IMG/VR virus record: IMGVR_UViG_3300037478_000238
Location: 1-55,206 of that record
DNA: 55,206 nucleotides
Source: a virus
Taxonomy: Duplodnaviria; Caudoviricetes
Strand: one strand, 5' to 3'
Under the pieces are notes generated by a model. It was not told the DNA's origin. It saw only the letters and a program-made list of their open reading frames with translations, and made no database searches. Both the position numbers and the translations under genes were made by a program. How positions within the stretch are numbered: position 1 is the first letter of the stretch; each line of letters opens with the position of its first letter. This document shows, piece after piece, positions 2,219 to 25,347 of this stretch.

Positions 2219-2695
2219 ATGATTGAGCTACCCGGTGGGGTAACCTCCGAGCACATCCACCAGTCAAACCTGATCGAGAACATCAACGACCCGGAAGCTG
2301 ACACGGACAGTCGCTTGGCCTGGACCTGGCTGGTGGACCAGGATGTCCTGAACCCACTCACCATCCAGATCCTCCACTGGTTGATTACCCTCAACCAGCT
2401 CCCTAGTGAGTACGCCGGACGGTTCCGGGAGGTGAACGTGATGGTGGGACGCTATCATTGCCCAAACTGGAGACTGGTCCCGGAGCGGATGGGCGAGTGG
2501 CTGCATGCAATGAACCGGGAACCCAGCCAGGACCCCAAGGAAATGCACGTGCGGTTCGAGAAGATCCACCCATTCATTGACGGCAATGGTCGAACCGGAC
2601 GGATGCTCATGTGGCGGCATCAGATGATGCTTGATGTAACGCCGACCCTGCTGCGCGCCGACGAAAAAGACAGGTACTACCAGTGGTTCAAGTAG
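2219..2695 (+). CDS. Fic-domain protein (putative AMPylase)
   Basis: Intact catalytic motif HPFIDGNGRTGR. Confidence 0.93.
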   Translation: MIELPGGVTSEHIHQSNLIENINDPEADTDSRLAWTWLVDQDVLNPLTIQILHWLITLNQLPSEYAGRFREVNVMVGRYHCPNWRLVPERMGEWLHAMNREPSQDPKEMHVRFEKIHPFIDGNGRTGRMLMWRHQMMLDVTPTLLRADEKDRYYQWFK

Positions 2696-2707
2696 TTAGG
2701 AGGATCT

Positions 2708-3526
2708 ATGAATTTCAGCCTTCGTGAAACTGACCTGGATGTGCTCAACTCGGTCACCAAGTACCCGTCCATCGCCACGTACCACACCCTGAACCCGGAC
2801 GACCCGGGGATTCTTAGCGAAGAGCATGTGGTGTTCCCGCCCGACTCGGAGGTGATTGCTACCGAGAAGATCAACGGCGCCAACGCCAGGATCATCCTCA
2901 CCCCGGACAGTCAGTGGCTGATCGGGTCCCGGGAAATGCTGTTGTCGGCCAGGGGCGACCTGATTGCCAACCCGGCCGAAGGCATCGTGGAGGCCCTGCG
3001 CGACAAGGCGGAAGCCATAGTCCGTCAGCGTCAAATGGGCCGGGATATCATTCCCGGAGGTGACATCCTGGTCCTGTACGGGGAAGTTTACGGAAACAGG
3101 ATCGACGGCTGGCAGCAGTACACCGATAGTAGCCGAAGGTGGTTCGGGTTCCGGTTGTTCGACGTCATGGTTCTGAACCCGGAGCATACAGGGGTACTCG
3201 ACTGGCCCCGGGACAGGATCGCCGGCTGGCGGTCACGTGGCGGACAGCCGTTCCTGTCGGAAGCCGCACGGGTCGTGTTAGCACGTGCGTACTTGGTTGA
3301 CCTGGCCCCAAGGTTGTTTACCTTAAAGGCTAAGCAGCTTCCGGAGACCCTGTTGGACACACAGCGTTTCATGCAGCAGTTCCGTGATACCCGAGCCTCA
3401 TTGGATGGAACCATTGGCAAGGCGGAAGGTATTGTTCTGCGCACTCCCGCCCGGTCCGTGATCGTCAAGGCCCGGTTTGACGACTACCGCCGGAGCCTTC
3501 AACGTAGACAGGAGAAGAGTCGGTGA
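2708..3526 (+). CDS. RNA ligase family (Rnl2-like) nucleotidyltransferase
   Basis: Motifs EKINGAN, YGEVYG, FRLFDV, EGIVLR, IVKAR. Confidence 0.8.
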   Translation: MNFSLRETDLDVLNSVTKYPSIATYHTLNPDDPGILSEEHVVFPPDSEVIATEKINGANARIILTPDSQWLIGSREMLLSARGDLIANPAEGIVEALRDKAEAIVRQRQMGRDIIPGGDILVLYGEVYGNRIDGWQQYTDSSRRWFGFRLFDVMVLNPEHTGVLDWPRDRIAGWRSRGGQPFLSEAARVVLARAYLVDLAPRLFTLKAKQLPETLLDTQRFMQQFRDTRASLDGTIGKAEGIVLRTPARSVIVKARFDDYRRSLQRRQEKSR

Positions 3527-5725: not shown

Positions 5726-6136
5726 ATGAGAAAGGTAATTGCACTATTAGTGTTATCGGTTGCACTGTTAACCGGTTGCAGTATCACAACAGAACCAGCT
5801 TCAAAGCCTCTGAACCGGGGAAGTACACCGCAGCCACAGGCTAGTTTCCAGCTGCCGGAACCGGAAGACTTCACCTTGTCGATCCGGATGCTGGAAAAGC
5901 ATTGCTTTGGCTCGGCCGGGTGTAACGTCACCTTTCAGGTAGAGGTGGATTACGACGGCCCCGACCTTGACCCGACTACCGCCTACCTGTTGACCTACGA
6001 GGTCAACGGGACCGAGGATACGTACCTGCACACGGTACGGGTCGTGGACGGGCGCTACACTTCCCAGAATCACTACGCCGGAACCACCTCCAGCGATGTG
6101 GAACTGACCGCTGCGGTGGTGGAAATCAGTGACTGA
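5726..6136 (+). CDS. Lipoprotein
   Basis: MRKVIALLVLSVALLTG-C lipobox; AAAGGAG RBS. Confidence 0.8.
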   Translation: MRKVIALLVLSVALLTGCSITTEPASKPLNRGSTPQPQASFQLPEPEDFTLSIRMLEKHCFGSAGCNVTFQVEVDYDGPDLDPTTAYLLTYEVNGTEDTYLHTVRVVDGRYTSQNHYAGTTSSDVELTAAVVEISD

Positions 6137-6617
6137 CAAACTGATTGTGGTATTTAGTGGCTGGCGTCACTGGTCTGATGAGGCATTCATAGAGTCGGTC
6201 CTTGACACATACTGGCTGGGCGGCGCGATGCCACATATCCGGGTCGGTGACTGCCGCACCGGTGCCGATGCCATAATCCGGGGCTGGTGCCAGCGGGCAG
6301 GACTCCAGTTTAGTCAGTACCTGGCCAACTGGGACCTGTACGGGCGGTCAGCTGGCCCGATCCGCAACTTTGAAATGATCACCGGTCGCCCCTACCCGGC
6401 CGGCCTGGTGACCATGAAAGGGGCCACCACTGACGGGGCCTCCATCAACCCACCCGGGGACCTGGCCGACATACTGATCGCATTCCCCGAACCCGGTGCC
6501 AGGCCAGGTACCGGCTCCGGCACCTGGGGGTGCATAAGCGAAGCGTGGAAGGCCGGAGTGGAGGTACATTTGCCCTCCTACCCGAAAAGAAGGCTATATG
6601 TAGCCCAAAGTAGCTGA
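6129..6617 (+). CDS. SLOG-family (DUF2493/YspA-like) protein
   Basis: SGWRHW, GDCRTGAD, W..YGRSAGPIRN, LIAFP..GSGT. Confidence 0.8.
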   Translation: MTDKLIVVFSGWRHWSDEAFIESVLDTYWLGGAMPHIRVGDCRTGADAIIRGWCQRAGLQFSQYLANWDLYGRSAGPIRNFEMITGRPYPAGLVTMKGATTDGASINPPGDLADILIAFPEPGARPGTGSGTWGCISEAWKAGVEVHLPSYPKRRLYVAQSS

Positions 6618-16509: not shown

Positions 16510-17404
16510 CGGCCCGATTTCCTCGATCCGGTTCCGGGGGCTGATCGCTCCCGAAGAACCGGTCATCACCGGTGACTACCGTAAGTTCGCCCGAGGGTCG
16601 CTGAGTCATCGTAGACTGCCCCGTCCGGTCATGTTCACGCGGGAAAACAACCGGGGACACTTGGGCGCTACCACCGTAGGGCGCCTGGAACAGGTGGAGT
16701 ACCAGCCTGGCCGGGGCTGGATAGGATCGGGGTCCTTTCTGGACCCACAGATCATTCCGGAAGTGGTACAGGCTATCTACCTGGTCCAGCAAGGTGTCTC
16801 TACCCCCAGTGTGGACCTACAGCCGGACATGACCTATGAGATCGTGCCACACTCCCATCAGCCGGACCAGAGTGTGGCGCGGATACTAAAAGGTCGTATA
16901 GCCGGGTTCACGTTCGTCCCGTTCGCCGCGTTCGAGGAAACCGAAATTACCGTTTCGGACGAGTCCGACCAGGCGATACTGGCCAGCGCCGGCATCGAAC
17001 TGGAACTGACCTTTTTCGCAGTCAACAGCAGTTCCTGGCGACAGATGCCGATTGCTGAACGGGACGCCCCGTTCGAGTTTGAGGCCGCCATCGAACGGAT
17101 TCTACAATGGTCCAAGGGTCGTCCTGCCCTGTTCAACCGGGCGTTCCTGTACCGCAACAACGAAACCGCTGACACCTCCCGGGTGGCCTACCACCTACCC
17201 ATCGCGGACATCATCGACAACAAACTGACCCTGGTGCCCCGGGCGGTACATTCCGCAGCCGTATTCATGGCCGGTGGGCACGGTGGCCTGCCGAACATCT
17301 CCGAACAGGAACAGGAACAGATCCGGCAAGTACTCAATGAGATATACGATGTGCTCCGGGGGCGGTTCGGTGACCCACGGATCAAAGCCCCATGGCAGAA
17401 GTGA
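16502..17404 (+). CDS. Capsid maturation protease (N-terminal part)
   Basis: TGDYRKF, H.GA..VG, SVDL, TFVPFAAF. Confidence 0.65.
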   Translation: MVDGPISSIRFRGLIAPEEPVITGDYRKFARGSLSHRRLPRPVMFTRENNRGHLGATTVGRLEQVEYQPGRGWIGSGSFLDPQIIPEVVQAIYLVQQGVSTPSVDLQPDMTYEIVPHSHQPDQSVARILKGRIAGFTFVPFAAFEETEITVSDESDQAILASAGIELELTFFAVNSSSWRQMPIAERDAPFEFEAAIERILQWSKGRPALFNRAFLYRNNETADTSRVAYHLPIADIIDNKLTLVPRAVHSAAVFMAGGHGGLPNISEQEQEQIRQVLNEIYDVLRGRFGDPRIKAPWQK

Positions 17405-17417
17405 GGATGAGTCAGCC

Positions 17418-18626
17418 ATGCCTACGTACAACGTGAACGTAGACCCGGAAACCAGCATGGTCACCTGGGAAGACACCAGCACCGGGACCACGGGTGTCGC
17501 TGTTGACCCCGTGTTCGCAGACGACGACTGCGGGAACCTGGACACTCCAGATGCCGGTGACCTGAACACTGCTGCCCGTAAATGTGCTGCTCGGCGTGGT
17601 TGGGCGATGAAGGACGGCTCATATCCGATCCGGTCCAAGGAGATGCACGGTGCCGCTGACCTGGCCAAGGCCATCAAGGCGGTGGGTCGCGGTGGCGGCT
17701 CCCATGACGAGATCCGTCAGCACATCATGAAGCGGGCGCGGTCGCTGGGACTTGGTAATCAGATCCCTGAGAACTGGACCAGCAGTGGCTCCAGGAGTGG
17801 TGAATCTTCTACTGAGCCGGATGCATTTCAGGGACAGAGTGATGAGGATTGCCCCGAAGGACAGGTCCGTGACGAAAGCGGTGACTGCGTGACTCCTGAA
17901 AATGACAATGGCGACGACCAGGGCTACCAAGCCTCTGCCGTCCACCGACCTCCGGCCCACATGTTCACCAACCCGGCCCTTAACCGGACCACTCCTTTGA
18001 CCGTGGACGACAACGGCTACGTGTACGGGCACCTGGCCACGTGGAACGAATGCCACGTGGGTATCGGAAACCGGTGCATCACTGCTCCACGGACGGCCAC
18101 CAACTATGCCTACTTCACCACCGGGGAAGTGGTCTGCGACGACGGCAGCCGGAACCGGGTCGGCAAGATCACCCTTGGCACGGGTCACGCCGACCCCGCG
18201 CTGGGGTTCATCCCCGCCGCTGAACACTACGACAACACCGGCACTTCGGTAGCGGTAGTGGCCTGCGGGGAGGACCGGTTCGGGATCTGGGTCGCCGGTA
18301 GCCTGGTTCCTGGTTTAAACGAGGAGAAGCTTGCTGAGCTGCGCCGCTCCCCCCTGTCCGGGGACTGGCGTAGGATCGGCGGAAACCTGGAACTGGTGGC
18401 CGCCCTGGCGGTCAACACACCCGGTTTTCCGGTACTGCGGGCCAGCGCTGACAGTGAGGATGAGCTGGAGGTGTTACTGGCCGCCGGGGTGGTTACTGAG
18501 CCCGGGGAGGTGGTGGTCGATGAGGCCGCTGACCGGGCCAAGCGGTGGCGCGAGGTGGAAGACACGGTCCGTAGTGAGCGGGTCAAGCGACTACTTGGAG
18601 AACGACATGGATCATCTGGATCTTGA
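17418..18626 (+). CDS. Capsid maturation protease-associated protein (C-terminal part)
   Basis: GHLATW..CH, YAYF..G, LSGDWR, LELVAALAVN.PGFP; insert AMKDGSYPI...IPENW. Confidence 0.65.
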   Translation: MPTYNVNVDPETSMVTWEDTSTGTTGVAVDPVFADDDCGNLDTPDAGDLNTAARKCAARRGWAMKDGSYPIRSKEMHGAADLAKAIKAVGRGGGSHDEIRQHIMKRARSLGLGNQIPENWTSSGSRSGESSTEPDAFQGQSDEDCPEGQVRDESGDCVTPENDNGDDQGYQASAVHRPPAHMFTNPALNRTTPLTVDDNGYVYGHLATWNECHVGIGNRCITAPRTATNYAYFTTGEVVCDDGSRNRVGKITLGTGHADPALGFIPAAEHYDNTGTSVAVVACGEDRFGIWVAGSLVPGLNEEKLAELRRSPLSGDWRRIGGNLELVAALAVNTPGFPVLRASADSEDELEVLLAAGVVTEPGEVVVDEAADRAKRWREVEDTVRSERVKRLLGERHGSSGS

Positions 18627-18825
18627 GAACCGGTTCACCTTCCACCCGGCGAAGGGAGACCAGCCTTCGCGGTATCAGACCATCCGGAGCATGTGTGGTT
18701 CGCTGGCCAACTACCTGAACGAGGCGGTGCCGGAATCCCGGGAAAAGAGCCTGGCCATCACCCACCTGGAAGAGACGGTGTTCTGGGCTAACGCCGCCAT
18801 TGCCCGCCATGGGGACCGGGAGTAG
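18607..18825 (+). CDS. Acb2/Tad1-like helical-hairpin protein (putative signal-nucleotide sponge)
   Basis: RF.FH...SREKSLAITHLEETVFWANAAIAR. Confidence 0.7.
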   Translation: MDHLDLENRFTFHPAKGDQPSRYQTIRSMCGSLANYLNEAVPESREKSLAITHLEETVFWANAAIARHGDRE

Positions 18826-18827
18826 CC

Positions 18828-18971
18828 ATGGGCTGTAACTGCGGTAAGACTGCACCGACCAAGTTTGAGGTGAGGCTGCCGGACGGGAGCGTCAAGACGG
18901 TCACGTCTCCGGCCCAGGCCAGGGCGGAGATCACCAAAGCTGGTGGCGGCTCGTACAAGCCAAAAAAATGA
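18828..18971 (+). CDS. Small MGCNCG-start protein (47 aa)
   Basis: GGGAG RBS; type often found near actinophage capsid genes; below the ORF-track cutoff. Confidence 0.65.
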   Translation: MGCNCGKTAPTKFEVRLPDGSVKTVTSPAQARAEITKAGGGSYKPKK

Positions 18972-18985
18972 CCAGATATCTGGTC
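18970..18985. repeat. 16-bp palindrome, left boundary of the RNA island
   Basis: GACCAGATATCTGGTC; 14/16 match at 23571..23586. Confidence 0.7.
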
Positions 18986-19067
18986 GGTTTCGCCTGCGGA
19001 GCCGTGGTGGCATTAACTGCCGGCACGGCCTGGCTCATGTGGCATCTCCGGAACGTGTTCAAATGAG

Positions 19068-19155
19068 CGGAGGAGGGGAGGGTCGAACTCCCACGGGTGT
19101 TACCCCCAACAGTTTTCAAGACTGCGACCGGCGCCAACTGTTGGCTGGCCCCTCC
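19068..19155 (-). tRNA. tRNA-Ser(TGA)
   Basis: Acceptor GGAGGGG/CTCCTCC, loop CT-TGA-AA, long variable arm, GTTCGAC. Confidence 0.9.
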
Positions 19156-19208
19156 AATGATCAACCGGCCCCGATCCTTTGCGGGGCGCTCCTGAGGCCG
19201 GTTGATCG

Positions 19209-19280
19209 AGCGGTGCCGGGGACTTGAACCCCGCCTGTCAGCTTGGAAGGCTGATGCTCTACCAGATGAGCTAGCACCGC
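19209..19280 (-). tRNA. tRNA-Gly(TCC)
   Basis: GCGGTGC/GCACCGC, CT-TCC-AA, GTTCAAGT, discriminator U. Confidence 0.93.
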
Positions 19281-19285
19281 ATAAG

Positions 19286-19510
19286 CTACCCTACCGCTGC
19301 TCGGTAGAAGTAGCCTGACCAGAAGTGGGCAAAACACTTGTCCTCAGCGGACAGCTCAGGGTCATTATGGATGGCCTTTTGTGCCCGTGCAGACTGGTTG
19401 GCATCGGATGGGTCGAACGACACCAGTACCCGCTCGGTGTCATCCTCGTAAAGAAGTACCTCTCCGTTGATCTGCTGGATCACGTACCGTTCACTAGGCA
19501 GTCTAGCCAT
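19286..19510 (-). CDS. Hypothetical protein
   Basis: GGGAGGG RBS, 74 aa. Confidence 0.7.
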   Translation of the reverse strand: MARLPSERYVIQQINGEVLLYEDDTERVLVSFDPSDANQSARAQKAIHNDPELSAEDKCFAHFWSGYFYRAAVG

Positions 19511-19561
19511 CTACGCCCCTCCCCCTTCGACCATGGTCGCGTTCGTCTGGTCCAGCACAGC

Positions 19562-19804
19562 TCAGCCCTCCCCGCCGGTCGCATCGGCACGCCCGGCTAG
19601 GTGCCGGTAGGCGCAGTCGTACTTCTCGCCCTGCGGCTCAAGCAGGTGGAGCCGCCGCTCTACCTCCCGCTCGACTTCGGCCCAGTCGCGCTCGCCGATG
19701 TCCGGGTAATCCTCCCACTGGAGCGGGTTACGGCGGGCGGCGGCGGCGATGGCATGGCGGGCAACGTCCCGGACCGCCAGTTCGGTCATGGTCGGGTTGG
19801 TCAT
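19562..19804 (-). CDS. Hypothetical protein
   Basis: ATGA overlap with the phosphoesterase stop. Confidence 0.65.
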   Translation of the reverse strand: MTNPTMTELAVRDVARHAIAAAARRNPLQWEDYPDIGERDWAEVEREVERRLHLLEPQGEKYDCAYRHLAGRADATGGEG

Positions 19805-20352
19805 CTTCGTATCAGCTCCTCGATCTGATGACTGGAAACCGGGTAGAAGTCCCACATATCCACTCCCACATTGATCTGGCGTCCCTTCACCTGCCATAGG
19901 TTGTGGATGTGGCCATGCAGCAGCCAGCGGCCCTTGTCCGCCGGGTAGAACCCGGCAAACCTGTCCTGGTGCCGTGAGTCCTCTTCGTAGGGGAAATGGC
20001 AGAGGGTCCACGCTTCCATGTGCCATTCTTGCGGTCCGATGGTGAAATCCGCGTCCCGGTACCTATTCACATCAGCTGGGCGTACCTCCTTGTGCCCTGG
20101 CCAGCACCGGTCATGGTTGCCAGGGATTAGGATCTTGTTACCCTTCAGTTGTCGGCAGACAGGTAGCGTTTCGGCCAGCTTTCCCAGGGCCACATCACCG
20201 AGTACGAACACCGTGTCTTCTGGAGCGACACGTTCATTCCAGCGCCGGACCAGTTCCCGGTTCATGTGGTCCACATTGTAGAACGGCCGGTTGCAGTACT
20301 TGATGATGTTGGCGTGACCAAAATGCGGGTCAGCCGTGTACCAAACAGTCAT
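19801..20352 (-). CDS. Calcineurin-like metallophosphoesterase
   Basis: DPHFGH, LGD, GNHD, HGHIH. Confidence 0.92.
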   Translation of the reverse strand: MTVWYTADPHFGHANIIKYCNRPFYNVDHMNRELVRRWNERVAPEDTVFVLGDVALGKLAETLPVCRQLKGNKILIPGNHDRCWPGHKEVRPADVNRYRDADFTIGPQEWHMEAWTLCHFPYEEDSRHQDRFAGFYPADKGRWLLHGHIHNLWQVKGRQINVGVDMWDFYPVSSHQIEELIRR

Positions 20353-20370
20353 ACGTACCCCCTTCCTCGG

Positions 20371-20444
20371 GGTGTGTGACGGGATCTGCCCCCGCGAGAA
20401 CTGGAGCCACATTCCAGTGCCTAATGCTGTCCGGCTTCACACAC
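20371..20444 (-). tRNA. Atypical tRNA-His(GTG)
   Basis: Acceptor GTGTGTG/CACACAC, C discriminator, stem CTGGA/TCCAG with AT-GTG-GC loop; non-canonical T-loop GGCAGAT. Confidence 0.7.
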
Positions 20445-20446
20445 AG

Positions 20447-20519
20447 CACCCCCGACAGGAGTTGAACCTGCAACCTACAGCTCCGGAAGCTGTCGCTCTA
20501 TCCATTGAGCTACGAGGGC
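20447..20519 (-). tRNA. tRNA-Arg(CCG)
   Basis: TAGCTCAATGGATAGAGC D-arm, TT-CCG-GA, GTTCAACT. Confidence 0.93.
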
Positions 20520-20522
20520 AAG

Positions 20523-20605
20523 ATGGTGACTTGTGTCATTCATAACGACGTGAATCCAACCAGCCCAATTCCATAACACAAGTTCTTGCCTGGCTGTCCG
20601 ACCAT
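20523..20605 (-). ncRNA. Candidate structured small RNA between the two tRNA-Arg genes
   Basis: ATGGT/ACCAT ends; 11-bp ACTTGTGTTAT/ATGACACAAGT stem. Confidence 0.4.
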
Positions 20606-20617
20606 TCTATTTCGCAG

Positions 20618-20689
20618 TACCCCCAGCAGGAGTCGAACCCGCATATACGGTTCCGTAGACCGTCGCTCTGTCCATTGAGCTATGGAGGC
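20618..20689 (-). tRNA. tRNA-Arg(ACG)
   Basis: ACGGT CT-ACG-GA ACCGT; canonical D and T arms. Confidence 0.93.
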
Positions 20690-20694
20690 TTAAA

Positions 20695-20730
20695 GTGGCC
20701 CCTGGAACAGGGAAGTAACCCAGGGGCCAC
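20695..20730 (-). other. Hairpin downstream of ro60 with GTTACTTC in the loop
   Basis: GTGGCCCCTGG-gttacttccctgtt-CCAGGGGCCAC. Confidence 0.6.
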
Positions 20731-20744
20731 CTCGCTTCCAAATA

Positions 20745-22427
20745 CTACCCCACGGAAGGGGTACGGTCAAGCCATGGCCAGTCCGCGTTGACTCCACGCT
20801 CCACCAACGGGATCAGCCTGAACATTGCATCCGACACACCGCCGTAAACGTGTCGATTGTTCTCACCAGACGGCATCATGCCCTTGGTGTAACCCACCAG
20901 GTTGATCGTGTGCATCGGCACATGCTCCGGCACACATAAAGTCACCTCACCGGCGTGCATGTCAACACTGGCCTGCTCGTCAGTGATGATGATGACCCGA
21001 TCGTGGCCGTGGTAGTGAGTACGTAATGCCTGAGCGGTACGAGTACCACCACCCAGCTTGTACTCGTGATCGAACCGGGTCCAGGCCCTTATCATCGACT
21101 CCCCCGTAACCAGCGGGAACTCCATGGTGCGGTTCGAGAACGACACCACGGTGGCGTCCTCCGCCCGCGTGGCCAGGGCCACACCGAACAGGGCAGCCTG
21201 CTGCATCTGGCCGATGCCACCCCGGATCGAGAACCGGCCGAACATCGAAGTGGACGTATCCACCAACACCAGGGTCCGTCCCGGCAGTGACGGCACGTTG
21301 GCCAGGGACAGATTCAGGGCCTTCTCCAGTGGGTACGACCACCGCAGTGATGGCACGTTCACGTGTGCGGTGATGAACCGGAGCGGAAGCTGCCGCGACC
21401 ATGCCACCTGGTGTGGGTCGGTCAGTCGATCGATCACCTGCTGGGCAACCTCATCCGACACCCCGGCCTGGTCGAAGTTACGCAGGTTCCGCAACAGTGC
21501 CATGTATCCCATGGACGGGATCATGGCCTCCCATAGGTCCTTCTTGGACACCTTGTCCCCGGCCAGTGAGAGTACATCCTCCCACGTCATCCCGGCCTCC
21601 TTCAGCCGGTTCAGGTCCAGCAGCGCCCTCGGGTCGGTCAACGCCTGCTGACGCAGTTCGCTGTTTGCCTTAATCATGTACAGGAATGTTGAGATCTCGG
21701 GGGTTGGATTGTAGCGCCGCTCCAGGGCAAACTTGAACAGTTGGTTTTGCCTCCAGAGGGTAACCTTCGGATGAGTCAGCATGATCACATCCGCGAACCG
21801 GAACCCGTGCGAAGCAGTGTCGTACTTCAGCAGGGACCGCTGCGTGTACAGATCCACTGCTGCATCGCCGATGCCCCGCTTGATCGGCATCGGCATGGTC
21901 CGGCCGTAGTGCCGGAACCAGTACGCCACGGCCTCACCAGGCTCGTCGCCGCGCCTGATCCCAGCCTTGGCCAGCAGCCGGGTGACACCCTGGCCATACT
22001 TCGGATGCAGGCCGGCACCGCCGGTCACATGGGCCTTGTTGAACTTGTCGGTGTGGAACTTACGGTGCAGGGCCAGGAACTGCCCATCCGACAGGTCGTT
22101 GACAGCCTTGGCCGCCTCCAGGCCCAGCACCAGGGACACGGTGCGAAGGTTCTGCTTGTCACGCAGCCACCACACCAGCTCCAGTGTCCACGCCGGGTCC
22201 TCAACCGCCACCTGGCGGACCAGGCCCAGCAACCGGTTGTCGCGGTCGTCCATCAACTCGTAGAACGTGTCCGCGTTCATGAAGTTGGACGCGGACAGTA
22301 GCAGCAGCTCCGACTTCGGGTCGCGGTCGTAACCGGTGGCCCCCTCGTAGGTGGCGCCGGTCCGTCCAGTGGAACGCACCGGACTGCGGGCCTGGGTACG
22401 GGTCCGGCGAGTGTTGAACTTTGCCAT
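20745..22427 (-). CDS. rsr: Ro60-related TROVE + vWA RNA-binding protein (560 aa)
   Basis: T.EGA.GY..DPKSEL, DTFYE, MGYMALLRNLRNF, SRQLPLRF, vWA LVDTSTSM, GGT, IITDEQ; GGAGGAG RBS. Confidence 0.95.
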   Translation of the reverse strand: MAKFNTRRTRTQARSPVRSTGRTGATYEGATGYDRDPKSELLLLSASNFMNADTFYELMDDRDNRLLGLVRQVAVEDPAWTLELVWWLRDKQNLRTVSLVLGLEAAKAVNDLSDGQFLALHRKFHTDKFNKAHVTGGAGLHPKYGQGVTRLLAKAGIRRGDEPGEAVAYWFRHYGRTMPMPIKRGIGDAAVDLYTQRSLLKYDTASHGFRFADVIMLTHPKVTLWRQNQLFKFALERRYNPTPEISTFLYMIKANSELRQQALTDPRALLDLNRLKEAGMTWEDVLSLAGDKVSKKDLWEAMIPSMGYMALLRNLRNFDQAGVSDEVAQQVIDRLTDPHQVAWSRQLPLRFITAHVNVPSLRWSYPLEKALNLSLANVPSLPGRTLVLVDTSTSMFGRFSIRGGIGQMQQAALFGVALATRAEDATVVSFSNRTMEFPLVTGESMIRAWTRFDHEYKLGGGTRTAQALRTHYHGHDRVIIITDEQASVDMHAGEVTLCVPEHVPMHTINLVGYTKGMMPSGENNRHVYGGVSDAMFRLIPLVERGVNADWPWLDRTPSVG

Positions 22428-22453
22428 CTGGTTCTCCTCCTTTCGTTTGCCGT

Positions 22454-22530
22454 TGGTCGGGATGACAGGACTTGAACCTGCGGCTTCCTGGCCCCAAACC
22501 AGGCACTCTTCCAATCTGAGCTACATCCCG
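22454..22530 (-). tRNA. tRNA-Pro(TGG), CCA encoded
   Basis: CGGGATG/CATCCCG-ACCA, TT-TGG-GG. Confidence 0.95.
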
Positions 22531-22534
22531 TGCA

Positions 22535-22594
22535 GAAAGGCCCCTTCCACATGCCTCCGGGCGGGAGGTGGTGCATGCGTGGAAGGGGCCTTTC
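22535..22594. other. Long hairpin (16-bp perfect stem)
   Basis: GAAAGGCCCCTTCCAC/GTGGAAGGGGCCTTTC. Confidence 0.7.
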
Positions 22595-22599
22595 GCGGT

Positions 22600-22683
22600 G
22601 TGCCACGGGTACGGCACTTTGGGACAAAAGGAAAGGAGGTAGAGTCTATGGCTCGACTCGTGACGGTCTCCTGCCCGTGGCAC
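22600..22683 (-). ncRNA. Candidate small RNA with an anti-Shine-Dalgarno-like loop
   Basis: 10-bp closing stem GTGCCACGGG/CCCGTGGCAC; inner hairpin GAGTC/GACTC; loop TACCTCCTTTCCTTTTGTCCC. Confidence 0.45.
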
Positions 22684-22690
22684 GTGTTGC

Positions 22691-22766
22691 CCCTCCGAGA
22701 AAAAGTCGACCCCGGTTAAATGTCATTTTGCAGAATGAAGTAGCCGTTGTCATTCGCAGCGGAGGG
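22691..22766 (-). ncRNA. Minimal Y RNA (no tRNA-like domain)
   Basis: CCCTCCG/CGGAGGG stem; TGCGAA..GAC..CGG.TACTTC scaffold shared with the other two Y RNAs. Confidence 0.7.
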
Positions 22767-22781
22767 AAATCTTCAGTTGTG

Positions 22782-22817
22782 GGCGATGATGCAGCCCTGG
22801 GGGACTGCACCACCACC
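22782..22817 (-). other. 16-bp GU-rich hairpin downstream of tRNA-Tyr
   Basis: GGTGGTGGTGCAGTCC-ccca-GGGCTGCATCATCGCC; wobble pairs form only on the minus strand. Confidence 0.5.
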
Positions 22818-22819
22818 AG

Positions 22820-22901
22820 TGCGGGTGAAGGGATTCGAACCCCCTCAGCGCGTGCACCTGGTTTACAGCCAGGCCCGGCTCTCCCACTCCGGCGCACCCG
22901 C
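22820..22901 (-). tRNA. tRNA-Tyr(GTA)
   Basis: GCGGGTG/CACCCGC, CT-GTA-AA, long variable arm, GTTCGAAT. Confidence 0.9.
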
Positions 22902-22904
22902 ATG

Positions 22905-23040
22905 GATTCCCGAGAAAATATTGACATCCGAAACGTAGCGCTCTGCCATTGAGCTACATCTGGTGAACCAGAAGATAGGACTCGAACCTATAACCACTCG
23001 ATTAGTAGTCGAAGTAACGGCTGTCTTCGCATCGGGAACC
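22905..23040 (-). ncRNA. yrlA: YrlA-type Y RNA (circularly permuted tRNA mimic)
   Basis: Closing stem GGTTCCCGA/TCGGGAATC; GTTACTTC; T-arm ATAGG-TTCGAGT-CCTAT, loop-closed acceptor-like stem CTTCTGG-ttca-CCAGATG, then D-arm TAGCTCAATGGCAGAGC; next to ro60. Confidence 0.88.
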
Positions 23041-23090
23041 TATGTAGTTTTGAAAGTCTCACCAGTCCCGGGGGGCGGCGAGAAGTTGAA

Positions 23091-23230
23091 GACGCCTGAG
23101 GAAAATCGATCCCGGATAGCTGCGAGGCGTTACCCTCGACGGTGGGACTCGAACCCACAACTCATTCTCCGTAAGGAATGTGATCTACCATTTGATCTAC
23201 GAAGTATCCGTGATCTGCGCATCAGGCGTC
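23091..23230 (-). ncRNA. Y RNA variant with a non-permuted D/anticodon/T-arm module
   Basis: GACGCCTGA/TCAGGCGTC stem, TGCGCA-GATC-a-CGGA-TACTTC scaffold, D-arm GATC/GATC, CATTC-cttacgga-GAATG, GTGGG-TTCGAGT-CCCAC. Confidence 0.75.
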
Positions 23231-23234
23231 CTGG

Positions 23235-23447
23235 TCAGATCTGGGTACGGAACTCCTTCATGAACTTCGACCACGAGTCCGGGTCGAAACTCAGATGGAT
23301 GTCCGGCAGCTGGTTGTTGCGGACCAGTACCTCGGTGGTTCGATGGGCCACTTCCACGCACAGGTCGTTGTCGCACCTGCTGGACTTGCGCCAGGTTACT
23401 TCTGCGCAGTTCCCGTTGTCACACCTGCTGGACTTACGCCAGTTCAC
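23235..23447 (-). CDS. DUF397-family protein with tandem WRKSS motif (70 aa)
   Basis: GTG start; WRKSSRCDNGNCAEV / WRKSSRCDNDLCVEVA..VRN..L.F...W..F; 48-bp internal duplication. Confidence 0.9.
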   Translation of the reverse strand: MNWRKSSRCDNGNCAEVTWRKSSRCDNDLCVEVAHRTTEVLVRNNQLPDIHLSFDPDSWSKFMKEFRTQI

Positions 23448-23558
23448 TGCACCACCCCCTTTGTCCCTTGGGAGCCTACCCCTAACAGGTCTGGTTCCTA
23501 GCGTGGCACGAGACCCGGGTTCCTGCAAGCTCCCAACCTGGCTAGTGACCCAAGTCAC

Positions 23559-23587
23559 ATAATAAAACTGGACAAGATATCTGGTAA
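23559..23587 (-). promoter_or_regulatory. Candidate promoter of the RNA island, overlapping the right boundary repeat (23571..23586)
   Basis: TTACCA-N17-TATTAT on the minus strand. Confidence 0.4.
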
Positions 23588-23661
23588 CCTTGCCAACCAG
23601 AAGCGCGTGCTGGCGTGAGGGCCGACGTGGAAAGTTAAACTTGCCACGGAAGGCCCCGAAA

Positions 23662-25347
23662 ATGGCTTTTGTCATCCCAGAAGACCTTGCAGTCTTCAGC
23701 ACCGAAGGACTCAGCGACCTTCGCCGGGTAGCCGCTGCCGAGCGGGACGAGCTACGCGCCTCAACCACCGCCGATGCCATCACCGACGAGCAACTGGACC
23801 GGCTGGAAACCCTGGTCGCGTTCATCGGCACCGCCGATGAGGAGATCACGGGCCGACAGGCACGCCAGGCCCGGTTCGACGCCACCGCACCGCCGCCGGC
23901 GCCAGAACCAGCCCCCGCCTCTGAACCTGAGCCCGAGCCTGAGCCGGTCACCGCCAGCGGCGACCCGGAACCCGCGCCAGACAGTGGACAGGATGAGCCA
24001 CCGGCGCAACCAGCCCCGGCAACCCGGGTGGACGTGGCGGCCCTGGCCGCCGGCAGTGACGGGACAACCGGCACCGCCGACGCCCTGCCGCCGTCCGCGT
24101 TCGGTGACCATGTCATCGTCGCCGCAGCCGACATCCCCGGCGTCACCACCGGAGCCGAGCTGGACAGCTGGGATGCGGTAGCCACCGCATTCGTCAACCG
24201 GACCCGGGCCTACTCCGGACGCACCCCGACCCGGCACGCCGTGGCCGAGATCCAGCGCCGGTTCGGCACCGAGTTCACCATCACCCAGGCCGAATCCCGA
24301 GACAAGGTCGCGGCAAACAACAAGCTTCAGCATGTGATGAATGAGGCCCGACTTCCGGGCGGCTCGCTGCTTGCGGCCAACGGGTGGTGCTCCCCATCGG
24401 AGAACCTGTACACCACCTGTAACCAGATCGGCACCGATGGCATGTGGTCTGGTCCGGAGGTGTCCGCGCCACGAGGTGGGATCAACCACAACCAGGGCAT
24501 CGAGTTCGATGCGGTGTTCGGTGACGGCTCCGGGTTCACGATCATGACCGAGGATGACGTGATCTCCGGAGAGGTGAAGACCTGCCGCGAGGTCCCATGC
24601 CCGCCGTTTGTGGACGACCGGCTGAAGATCAGCGCCCTGTGCCTGACCGGCAGCATCCTGCAGAACCGCACCTACCCGGAGTTCGTCTCCGAGTTCATCC
24701 AGGGCTTCATGGCCGTGGGCGCCCACAACCTCAACCGGCAGATCATCGCCGATGTGGTTGCCGGCTCCACCGCCGTGGACCTGACCGCTGCTGCCCCATG
24801 GAACAGCGACTCGTCAGTGGTCAGCCAGACCCTGTCGGCCGTTGCCCACGCCATCGTGGACATCAAGTACCGGCTGCGGCTGCCCCAGTCCAGCACCCTG
24901 GAAGTGGTGCTGCCGTTCTGGGTCATCGAGCAGTACCGGGCCGACTACATCCGTCGCAACGGGGTGAGCGACCCGAACCTGGCCGACGCCCAGCTGGCCG
25001 CCTGGTTCGCCACCCGTAGCGCCCGGGCGCAGTACGTCTACGACTGGCAGGACGCCTTCTCCGACTCCGGGGTCGGCTACGGGGCCGACGACGCCCTGAC
25101 AACCGTGCCCACGTCGGTGGACTTCCTGGTCTACCCGGCCGGCACCTGGGTCCTGGCCCGGCTGGACGTGATCCGGCTCGACTCCGTCTACGACAGCGTC
25201 AACCTGCCGCAGAACCTGGTCACCCAGCTGTTCATGGAAGACGGATTCCGGGCAATGCGCATGTGCCCACTGTCGCGGGTGTACACGGTGCCGATCTGCC
25301 CAACCGGCCACACCTCCGACCTTCAGACGGTCAGCTGCGGATCGTAA
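23662..25347 (+). CDS. Major capsid (hexamer) protein
   Basis: Scaffold-like N-terminus, then L.A.GWCSPSE..Y, RGG, KTC.EVPCP.F, YPE, QYVYDWQ, YPAGTW as in cluster-B-like capsids. Confidence 0.85.
   Translation: MAFVIPEDLAVFSTEGLSDLRRVAAAERDELRASTTADAITDEQLDRLETLVAFIGTADEEITGRQARQARFDATAPPPAPEPAPASEPEPEPEPVTASGDPEPAPDSGQDEPPAQPAPATRVDVAALAAGSDGTTGTADALPPSAFGDHVIVAAADIPGVTTGAELDSWDAVATAFVNRTRAYSGRTPTRHAVAEIQRRFGTEFTITQAESRDKVAANNKLQHVMNEARLPGGSLLAANGWCSPSENLYTTCNQIGTDGMWSGPEVSAPRGGINHNQGIEFDAVFGDGSGFTIMTEDDVISGEVKTCREVPCPPFVDDRLKISALCLTGSILQNRTYPEFVSEFIQGFMAVGAHNLNRQIIADVVAGSTAVDLTAAAPWNSDSSVVSQTLSAVAHAIVDIKYRLRLPQSSTLEVVLPFWVIEQYRADYIRRNGVSDPNLADAQLAAWFATRSARAQYVYDWQDAFSDSGVGYGADDALTTVPTSVDFLVYPAGTWVLARLDVIRLDSVYDSVNLPQNLVTQLFMEDGFRAMRMCPLSRVYTVPICPTGHTSDLQTVSCGS

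Follow-up and report, generated by a model that had tools for sequence, protein, structure and literature searches.

A putative Ro60-Y RNA cassette with interleaved tRNA genes in the head-gene block of an actinophage genome

Introduction

According to the survey of Chen et al. (2014, PMC4201824), RNAs of the YrlA class lie beside Ro60 in 254 bacteria and 22 phages, the latter comprising 20 cluster C mycobacteriophages and Bacillus phage G with one copy each and Caulobacter phage CcrColossus with three. Y RNAs were recognized there by a position no more than 4 kb from the Ro60 gene and on the same strand, by a long end stem, by the motif GNCGAAN0-1G and by a tRNA-like D/T module in at least one RNA. 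The same work reports that a YrlA-class RNA binds the bacterial Ro60 protein Rsr in three bacteria, and that YrlA and YrlB of Mycobacterium smegmatis are processed from one precursor, with YrlA being cut by RNase P. Rsr, Y RNA and PNPase form a complex, and in a study on Thermus phage phiLo (NAR 2025, PMC12135203) the phage Ro60 binds two upstream Y-like RNAs and assembles with the host PNPase. In the inventory of phage RNA-repair gear given by Iyer et al. (2021, PMC7824862), TROVE proteins and their tRNA-like partner appear beside tRNAs and ligases, and a 2025 genome note (PMC12714340) places a Ro-like gene in an optional region of about 5 kb in the 71-76-kb genomes of L2 mycobacteriophages. 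Here we analyze a locus that appears to be of this kind in IMG/VR record IMGVR_UViG_3300037478_000238, which was examined as a whole (55,206 bases, hereafter the window). It consists of a ro60 gene and three RNA units, Y1 to Y3, within a leftward accessory cassette; R1 and R2 are models introduced below:

23089-23232, minus strand: Y1 (model R2, 35.9 bits; Rfam tRNA match to the inner module)
22905-23040, minus strand: Y2 (model R2, 103.9 bits, full length 1-141)
22690-22767, minus strand: Y3 (model R1, 47.5 bits)
20745-22427, minus strand: ro60, TROVE and vWA domains (Pfam TROVE, 5.4e-20; phrog_850, 4.6e-35)

The three architecturally different RNAs are packed within about 0.55 kb, 263-805 nt upstream of the ro60 start codon and on the same strand, and in distance, strand, end stem and D/T module (the latter in Y2 and Y1) they agree with the description of Chen et al. 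Like the rsr locus of M. smegmatis, the window has its Y RNAs just upstream of Ro60, with one permuted tRNA mimic, one short RNA, a 5' motif close to the GNCGAA type and an actinobacterial lineage; unlike it, the system of the window is phage-borne, comprises three RNAs including a non-permuted mimic, and is interleaved with real tRNA genes. The phages Bxz1 and ET08 of cluster C, CcrColossus and G likewise combine Ro60 with a YrlA at no more than 4 kb on the same strand, but in these genomes of 150-500 kb the locus is found in non-structural regions, whereas in the 55-kb window it lies reversed within the block of head genes. Phage phiLo also has two Y-like RNAs upstream of Ro60 and provides the solved structure closest in sequence (E 1.5e-23). 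The sequence relation is nevertheless distant, and the phiLo RNAs were found via a CGAA motif, with tRNA-like modules not reported in the available text of that study. In the Salmonella rsr-yrlBA-rtcBA operon, which is linked to tRNA damage, Ro60 and two Y RNAs similarly share one operon, but RtcB, RtcA and RtcR are missing from the window, where the only possible repair enzymes are a metallophosphoesterase and a distant PF09414 ligase.

The type of system is known from bacteria and from other phages, and no new category is opened. What is new is modest: the position of the cassette at a hot spot in the head module, the non-permuted mimic Y1 beside a permuted one, and structures specific to a small clade. 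Two ideas of the first-pass annotation, a model's reading of the bare sequence, had likewise been put forward before, namely that different Y RNAs supply a single Ro60 with different partners, which is the standing model of Chen et al., who suggested that extra Y RNAs widen the range of partners, and that phage TROVE proteins and tRNAs are linked to repair against tRNA-cleaving defences, as proposed by Iyer et al.

Results and Discussion

Three RNAs built on one scaffold

The composite motif TGCGMA-N5-10-TACTTC occurs four times in the window against an expectation of 0.04; three occurrences are Y1 to Y3 and the fourth lies antisense within ro60. In all three units a closing stem of 8-11 bp is followed by an internal loop with the 5' strand UGCG(A/C)A(G/U) and a 3' strand ending in UUUUC, by a second helix of 8-9 positions with one or two central purine-purine mismatches, and by the heptamer (A/U/C)UACUUC, and in each of them a different insert follows this common scaffold. 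Such a scaffold with different inserts had been described in the first-pass annotation, and both the motif count and the model matches bear it out. The U-tract that was described at the 3' end is, however, the 3' strand of the conserved internal loop, UUUUC before the closing stem, and not a terminator tail; most relatives have UUGAUC in place of UUUUC. The 5' motif reads UGCGAAG in Y2 and UGCGAAUG in Y3, where U replaces the first G of GNCGAAN0-1G, and UGCGCAG in Y1, and most homologous units likewise read UGCG(A/C)AG. A further CTGCGAA near position 20617, which had been taken for a Y motif, was considered as a fourth Y RNA and rejected, as it is the stump of a deleted tRNA-Met.

Homologous loci were gathered from IMG/VR with an alignment of the window Ro60 and 20 homologues, which found the relatives that a scan of viral contigs with the single protein had not, no relative being confirmed in the latter. 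This yielded 186 confirmed stretches, the best 80 of which were kept (L126-L205). A script located the same motif and closing stem upstream of ro60 in most of these 80 viral loci, and two models were built, R1 from 39 short and R2 from 35 long units, with no sequence from the window or from L126 and L127, its close relatives. With filters off, the only significant match of R1 in the window is Y3 (E 1.2e-8), the next best score being 13.3 bits; because of their large inserts, Y2 and Y1 give only weak scaffold matches (11.9 and 11.3 bits). R2 matches Y2 over its full length (E 2.3e-20) and Y1 with the scaffold aligned and the inside skipped (E 5.5e-6), and its remaining weak matches are tRNA genes. 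All three RNAs therefore fall into one RNA family that travels with Ro60.

The first-pass annotation had tied its proposal to covariation in homologous loci, and such covariation was found in the closing stem and in helix 2, in sets of 42 and 35 homologues. In the 42 short units (the 39 of R1, Y3 and two orthologues) 86.6% of cells are paired, as compared to 70.5% in shuffled alignments and 37-55% when the partner is slid, and double-sided changes were counted in 111 cells versus 36 in shuffles, a value that 0 of 500 shuffles reached. Pairing in the closing stem reaches 97.3%, 7 of its 10 pairs covarying, and in helix 2 the covarying pairs are 6 of 8. Note that only units with 6 bp or more in the closing stem were selected; this stem is thus partly imposed, while helix 2 is not. 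In the 35 long units, RNAalifold retrieved the closing stem, helix 2, a T arm, a middle stem and a D arm, with 18 of 27 pairs covarying. Thermodynamics alone does not reveal these RNAs: single-sequence folding energy gave no signal for Y1 (z -0.18) or Y2 (z 0.08), the value for Y3 being z -1.73. Covariation and model matches together argue that Y1 to Y3 are genuine Ro60-type Y RNAs, in line with the first-pass view of one protein-binding scaffold and three inner modules in a single cassette with ro60 and tRNAs.

Tandem Y RNA arrays in viral Ro60 loci

At E<=1e-3 model R2 gave 188 matches in 84 loci, all of them on the ro60 strand. By hand tally, 76 of the 80 viral Ro60 loci contain one match or more, 60 contain two or more and 28 contain three or more. 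Of the four unmatched loci, two have almost no upstream DNA; among the 48 loci that supplied no training sequence, 44 are matched. A few matches in tRNA arrays are probably pairs of tRNAs. Arrays of several Y RNAs beside Ro60 are the rule and not the exception, and actinobacterial and actinophage Ro60 genes are normally accompanied by tandem arrays that share an invariant UACUUC and a two-helix scaffold.

Such arrays also occur in Streptomyces phages BRock and Alone3 and in Gordonia phage VanLee ('Ro-like RNA binding protein'). As in the window, ro60 stands in a tRNA array in these phages, preceded by 2-5 tandem units with the scaffold GAUGCGNAG...UACUUC...UUUCUAG that are unannotated in GenBank; unlike in the window, the locus lies outside the head module of genomes of 85-116 kb, and Ro60 identity is 43-44%. 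Relatives such as BRock and Alone3 are tractable in the laboratory and could serve to test what a phage gains from Ro60.

Other arrangements were seen as well. In L139 (6349-8038), L151 (6466-8286), L181 (5670-6596) and L145 (5676-6689), Y-type units are located downstream of ro60, some of these loci having five, and one unit of L181 encloses a tRNA-like body (Rfam tRNA, 61.7 bits). A motif scan of viral contigs returned mostly single matches, probably due to chance, with ro60 present only in L057, which is identical to L126, and in L072. Four matches to the Y 5' motif lie within 700 nt in L043 (IMGVR_UViG_3300038528_000004, 2501-3184), with no ro60 and no tRNA in 5.7 kb; this may be an orphan Y RNA array, or ro60 may be located further off.

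Architecture of the inner modules

The insert of Y1 holds a D arm, an anticodon-like arm, variable bases and a T arm in normal tRNA order, without an acceptor stem and with one extra hairpin, and its core (23140-23201) is matched by the Rfam tRNA model with 37.2 bits over model positions 6-65. In the window and L127 the anticodon-like loop is 8 nt long; in L126 it is 7 nt long, and there ARAGORN calls a tRNA-Cys. Relative to L126 and L127 the closing stem of Y1 shows compensatory changes (C-G to U-A, A-U to G-C), and further compensatory changes occur in its helix 2. Y2 contains a permuted tRNA mimic of the YrlA type, with T arm, middle stem and D arm, and the core of the Rfam YrlA model aligns all three; its closing stem differs in the relatives by a compensatory change from C-G to U.G. 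Y3 consists of the scaffold and a small variable loop only, resembles YrlB in size and has no tRNA-like part.

Among 65 distinct long units from 78 loci, a motif heuristic sorted 42 as permuted, 17 as having a T arm only and 3 as non-permuted, with 3 being unclassified or false. The three non-permuted units, which are of the Y1 type, come from L139, L151 and L181, by which the type is rare but not unique. Yrn1 of Deinococcus radiodurans resembles Y1 in that its arms are ordered unlike those of YrlA, with the middle stem in the place of the anticodon arm (PMC4201824), but it has no sequence relation to Y1, which carries the actinobacterial YrlA-type scaffold.

The Ro60 protein

The product of ro60 scores 72.4 bits with PF05731 (cut-off 23) and is full-length, with a TROVE domain and a C-terminal vWA domain bearing a DxSxS metal site. 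It aligns with phage Ro60 9KOP over residues 22-103 and 273-545, with DTSTS at the position of the metal-ion-dependent adhesion site (MIDAS). Its closest solved relative is the phiLo Ro60 (9KOP/9L5Y), in which VDVSGSM aligns to VDTSTSM. Homologues at E<=1e-40 number 6142. Identity amounts to 52-57% with cellular and metagenomic actinobacterial proteins (among them those named Micromonospora, Asanoa and Nocardiopsis), to 24-44% with GenBank phage copies and to 43-44% with the best actinophage copies. Because the protein is closer to cellular and metagenomic actinobacterial Ro60 than to the GenBank actinophage copies, these comparisons suggest that ro60 may have been captured from a host lineage in a separate event.

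Organization of the cassette

The cassette spans 19069-23570 and lies between a head-protease-like gene and the capsid gene; from 23570 down to 18986 all features are on the minus strand. Pfam, PHROG, ARAGORN, Rfam and the models R1 and R2 confirm the first-pass picture of one minus-strand run of DUF397, three Y RNAs, ro60, tRNAs, a metallophosphoesterase and hairpins that splits the protease and capsid genes. From the capsid side the order is DUF397, Y1, small hairpin, Y2, tRNA-Tyr, 13-bp hairpin, Y3, branched element, 16-bp hairpin, tRNA-Pro, ro60, UUACUUC hairpin, tRNA-Arg(ACG), 97-nt spacer, tRNA-Arg(CCG), metallophosphoesterase, two small open reading frames (ORFs), tRNA-Gly, long hairpin, an aberrant Ser-like element, and a terminator-like hairpin with a T7 run. 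Apart from Y1 to Y3 and ro60, the features are the following:

23235-23447, minus strand: DUF397 small protein, first cassette gene (Pfam PF04149, 8.6e-17, two stretches)
23058-23082, minus strand: small hairpin between Y1 and Y2 (read from the sequence; G.U to A-U in L126)
22820-22901, minus strand: tRNA-Tyr(GUA) (ARAGORN; Rfam tRNA, 43.8 bits)
22782-22817, minus strand: 13-bp hairpin directly 3' of tRNA-Tyr (read from the sequence)
22600-22683, minus strand: branched element of 84 nt with a 12-bp closing stem (RNAalifold on the window, L126 and L127)
22535-22594, minus strand: long hairpin of 16 perfect bp (100% complementary inverted repeat; kept in L126 and L127)
22457-22530, minus strand: tRNA-Pro(UGG) (ARAGORN; Rfam, 61 bits)
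20692-20733, minus strand: hairpin 3' of the ro60 stop codon, loop UUACUUC (motif/stem script)
20618-20689, minus strand: tRNA-Arg(ACG) (ARAGORN and Rfam)
20521-20617, minus strand: spacer, tRNA-Met stump followed by a conserved hairpin element (alignment with L126 and L127)
20447-20519, minus strand: tRNA-Arg(CCG) (ARAGORN and Rfam)
19801-20352, minus strand: calcineurin-type metallophosphoesterase (Pfam Metallophos, 1.2e-6; phrog_547, 2.9e-51; PDB 1XM7, 2.7e-8)
19562-19804, minus strand: 80-aa ORF (no Pfam, PHROG or NCBIfam match)
19286-19510, minus strand: 74-aa ORF, no family (95% aa identity in L126)
19209-19280, minus strand: tRNA-Gly(UCC) (ARAGORN and Rfam)
19069-19155, minus strand: aberrant class-II tRNA-like element, anticodon UGA (Rfam tRNA-Sec, 34.9 bits, cut-off 47)
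18960-18985, minus strand: terminator-like hairpin and T7 run at the cassette 3' end (doubles as left border palindrome copy)

Several gaps are very short. The closing stem of Y1 starts 2 nt after the DUF397 stop codon, that of Y2 ends 3 nt before tRNA-Tyr, and the 16-bp hairpin ends 4 nt before tRNA-Pro, which in turn ends 29 nt before the ro60 start codon and is followed by the ro60 ribosome-binding site. The branched element has a pyrimidine-rich interior and one compensatory pair in its closing stem; neither it nor the 16-bp hairpin contains the Y scaffold. An internal 48-nt tandem duplication is found in the DUF397 gene, the product of which is 75-80% identical (aa) in L126 and L127.

Where the first-pass annotation had counted seven tRNAs, five hold as canonical (Tyr, Pro, Arg twice, Gly), with 43.8-65 bits and agreement of ARAGORN and Rfam RF00005 (>29 bits). 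The sixth, at 19069-19155, is aberrant: it has a 7-bp acceptor stem, a T arm and a long variable arm and is Ser-like, but its D loop lacks GG, about 6 extra bases precede the anticodon stem, and ARAGORN makes no call. The seventh is the tRNA-like core of Y1. In the codon usage of the phage CGG makes up 45% of Arg, GGA and GGG together 40% of Gly and CCA 21% of Pro codons, all of which are read by its own tRNAs, and codon supply is a sufficient reason for the presence of tRNAs in the cassette.

Close relatives and turnover

In the viral contigs L126 and L127, Ro60 is 85% and 79% identical to that of the window, respectively, and the order of the cassette is kept: capsid, DUF397, Y1, Y2, tRNA-Tyr, Y3, structures, tRNA-Pro, ro60, tRNAs, phosphoesterase, tRNA-Gly, Ser-like element, small ORFs and protease gene. 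The window thus adds a small phage genome whose Ro60 system is compact and sharply bounded and can be compared with two natural variants. Nucleotide identities to the window are:

Y2: 96% in L126, 95% in L127
Y1 tRNA-like core: 90% in L126, 95% in L127
Y3: 76% in L126, 91% in L127
tRNA-Pro: 99% in L126, 99% in L127
ro60: 86% in L126, 83% in L127

For tRNA-Tyr, -Pro and -Gly the range is 94-99%, and the Ser-like element is 94% identical in both relatives. A tRNA-Met(CAT) beside tRNA-Arg in L126 (5341-5412) and L127 (5275-5346) is cleanly deleted in the window, where a few bases of its 5' end remain in 20521-20617; the hairpin element of about 75 nt behind it is kept in all three genomes. The 60-nt stretch 3' of tRNA-Arg(CCG) is 98% identical in L127, and L126 has a tRNA-Arg(CCU) where the window has ACG. 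The 80-aa ORF at 19562-19804 gave no tblastn match in L126 or L127, and one contig from a sediment metagenome leaves out 19520-19808 and has 7 other nucleotides at the joint, so that this region is a presence/absence variant within the cassette. In the DNA contigs of four runs no contig joins across the whole cassette, and the skip of 19520-19808 is the only clean joint.

The insertion slot and its borders

The cassette occupies a slot between two head genes on the opposite strand:

17274-18626, plus strand: head-protease-like gene (phrog_18402, 2e-55; phrog_859, 1.3e-70)
23590-25347, plus strand: major head (capsid) gene (phrog_777, 1.6e-128)
23559-23587, minus strand: promoter-like site TTACCA-17-TATTAT in the divergent gap between capsid gene and cassette (consensus scan, 9/12 matches)

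In Actinoplanes phage phiAsp2 (L005, 3805-6536) the same slot, bounded by the protease-like Pas7 on one side and the major head protein on the other, is filled by six minus-strand genes, pas8-pas13, and in Microbacterium phage Fregley one small ORF separates the protease and capsid genes. As the reverse genes of phiAsp2 are unrelated and Fregley has a single ORF, the slot is, within this capsid lineage, a hot spot of accessory cassettes in reverse orientation. The phiAsp2 cassette was also considered as a homologue and rejected, since Pas11 is unlike the phosphoesterase and the six ORFs have no Pfam match.

The 14-nt palindrome ACCAGATATCTGGT occurs in the 55 kb only at 18971-18984 and 23572-23585, once at each cassette border, with 0.07 occurrences expected. 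Both copies sit in 22-nt direct repeats, the right one with one mismatch. The left copy forms the terminator-like hairpin of the minus strand and shares bases with the beginning of a small membrane ORF, and the right one overlaps the promoter-like site. In L126 the palindrome has two synonymous changes and is palindromic still. It may represent an operator, a terminator or the scar left by a recombination event.

Three small plus-strand ORFs separate the protease-like gene from the cassette. One ORF located between the protease gene and the Ro60 cassette, and kept in L126 and L127, contains an Acb2/Tad1 hairpin domain in residues 103-159; the real gene is probably short, with a start near 18607. 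PF24729 is the family of sponge proteins with which phages take up the signalling nucleotides of CBASS and Thoeris. The Fic/DOC, ligase and SLOG genes at 2.2-6.6 kb of the window may be regarded as further candidates for conflict or RNA-repair functions:

18331-18825, plus strand: ORF with Acb2/Tad1 hairpin domain (PF24729, 1.2e-19; phrog_1454)
2219-2695, plus strand: Fic/DOC-family gene (PF02661, 3.5e-15)
2708-3526, plus strand: RNA ligase directly 3' of the Fic/DOC gene (PF09414, 6e-17; phrog_548)
6129-6617, plus strand: YAcAr SLOG-family gene (PF10686, 6.5e-8)

Functional interpretation and alternatives

We consider it likely that the leftward cassette is a complete phage Ro60-Y RNA ribonucleoprotein (RNP) system accompanied by phage tRNAs, and that it works along the following lines. 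The cassette would be read as one or a few long transcripts starting in the gap beside the capsid gene, a single leftward operon being suggested because the very short gaps (2-30 nt) and the terminator-like hairpin with its T7 run fit this arrangement. Cuts by RNase P and RNase Z at the tRNAs would free the Y RNAs and the messages of ro60 and the phosphoesterase; such a use of tRNAs as processing signals is plausible because of the spacing and the precedent of M. smegmatis. Ro60 would bind each Y RNA through the common scaffold, since the loop and helix 2 are conserved family-wide and a role of the 5' motif has been published. The variable modules would then tether or gate Ro60 toward other factors, by analogy most likely host PNPase and tRNA-handling enzymes, and the resulting RNP would act in the surveillance or decay of structured or damaged RNA during infection, with the tRNAs of the cassette mainly serving the codon use of the phage itself.

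A number of observations weigh against this explanation. The Rfam search for YrlA that the first-pass annotation had suggested stayed below the curated threshold: RF02553 gave 32.2 bits for Y2 (E 3.7e-4) with a cut-off of 69, and no match for Y1 or Y3. Note, however, that RF02553 exceeds its cut-off in 0 of 16 related actinobacterial-type Ro60 loci tested, whereas a lineage-specific model scores the same RNAs at 100-150 bits, and the curated model therefore does not cover this lineage; for annotation it is useful to know that the standard procedure misses a whole branch, including the arrays of BRock, Alone3 and VanLee. In addition, these RNAs have U at the point where the published 5' motif opens with G, and Y1 has CGCAG rather than CGAAG. 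The NCBIfam equivalog model NF041674 for Rsr assigns Ro60 36.4 bits with a cut-off of 900, by which the protein is a homologue and not an equivalog of the Deinococcus/Salmonella-type Rsr model. Between Y3 and tRNA-Pro lie several strong hairpins at which transcription could end or be divided, so that a single operon is not assured, and neither the promoter call nor the terminator call goes beyond a weak consensus match at background frequency, with three promoter-like sites found in the region versus 1.5 expected. PNPase as a partner, finally, is taken from other systems.

The cassette could alternatively be a counter-defence or RNA-repair platform, the direction favoured in the first-pass annotation, in which the RNPs, the phosphoesterase as an end healer of 2',3'-cyclic or 3'-phosphate RNA ends, the RNA ligase encoded elsewhere in the genome and the spare tRNAs act together to detect, substitute or repair tRNAs that host anticodon nucleases have cut. 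The adjoining gene with its Acb2/Tad1 hairpin domain, the different reverse cassettes that relatives hold in the slot, the PF09414 ligase next to a Fic/DOC gene together with the SLOG gene, and the presence of the metallophosphoesterase in the same operon would all fit this, and both TROVE proteins with tRNAs as phage RNA-repair gear (Iyer et al. 2021, PMC7824862) and phage tRNAs as a means to evade tRNA-targeting defences (eLife 2023, PMC10264068) have been proposed. However, Pfam, PHROGs and NCBIfam identify no RtcB, RtcA or polynucleotide kinase among the cassette ORFs, the ligase is 16 kb away, and the phosphoesterase, whose only solved relative 1XM7 is an uncharacterised protein, has no specific similarity to RNA end-healing enzymes and neighbours ro60 at just 4 of 80 viral loci. 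The set of tRNAs agrees with simple codon supply, and the present evidence contains no sign of damage sensing, so that we judge this explanation unlikely. A bolder version, in which the slot is a counter-defence bay and the Ro60 cassette a tRNA-damage module, with Y1 and its fast-changing anticodon-like loop (7 or 8 nt) presented on Ro60 as bait or sensor for host anticodon nucleases while translation is restored by the operon phosphoesterase together with the RNA ligase of the phage and its spare tRNAs, seems to us quite improbable.

That the Y-like units are merely decayed or rearranged tRNA genes unrelated to Ro60, their scaffold being a by-product of tRNA-gene duplication, might be argued from the tRNA-like arms in two of the three units, the Rfam tRNA match inside Y1, the tRNA-Cys call for the L126 copy and the tRNA turnover evident from the lost tRNA-Met. 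Yet Y3 has no tRNA-like part but carries the full scaffold (E 1e-8), the scaffold is present on the ro60 strand in 76 of 80 Ro60 loci with both helices covarying, Y2 is as conserved as real tRNAs, and RNAs of this class bind Rsr in the three bacteria of Chen et al. Covariation, the R1 and R2 matches and the survey have largely refuted this reading, to which we attach hardly any probability.

Little more can be said for an autoregulatory sponge, in which Ro60 would bind its own UUACUUC hairpin and upstream structures and so set the levels of the cassette transcript, with the Y RNAs competing. This hairpin of 12-15 bp, with the invariant Y RNA heptamer as its loop, is conserved directly 3' of ro60 in 3 of 3 genomes of the clade (the window, L126 and L127), and two more conserved structures lie between Y3 and tRNA-Pro. 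But UUACUUC has no demonstrated role in Ro60 binding, and the hairpin is clade-specific: among 78 other viral loci three similar ones were flagged (L128, L144, L167), none directly 3' of ro60. As the considered portions of the literature on Ro60/Y RNA systems offer no precedent either, we regard such regulation as very unlikely.

Genome setting

The window has a G+C content of 60.5% and inverted terminal repeats, and CheckV puts its completeness at 77%. A megablast search of the cassette against GenBank phages gave no DNA-level match. Portal, MuF-like, protease-like, major head, major tail, tape-measure and lysin genes of the window were assigned via PHROG families. The virus is an actinophage from soil or sediment. 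Its capsid protein shares 41% identity with the phiAsp2 counterpart and 29-36% with capsid proteins from phages of Gordonia, Microbacterium and Mycobacterium.

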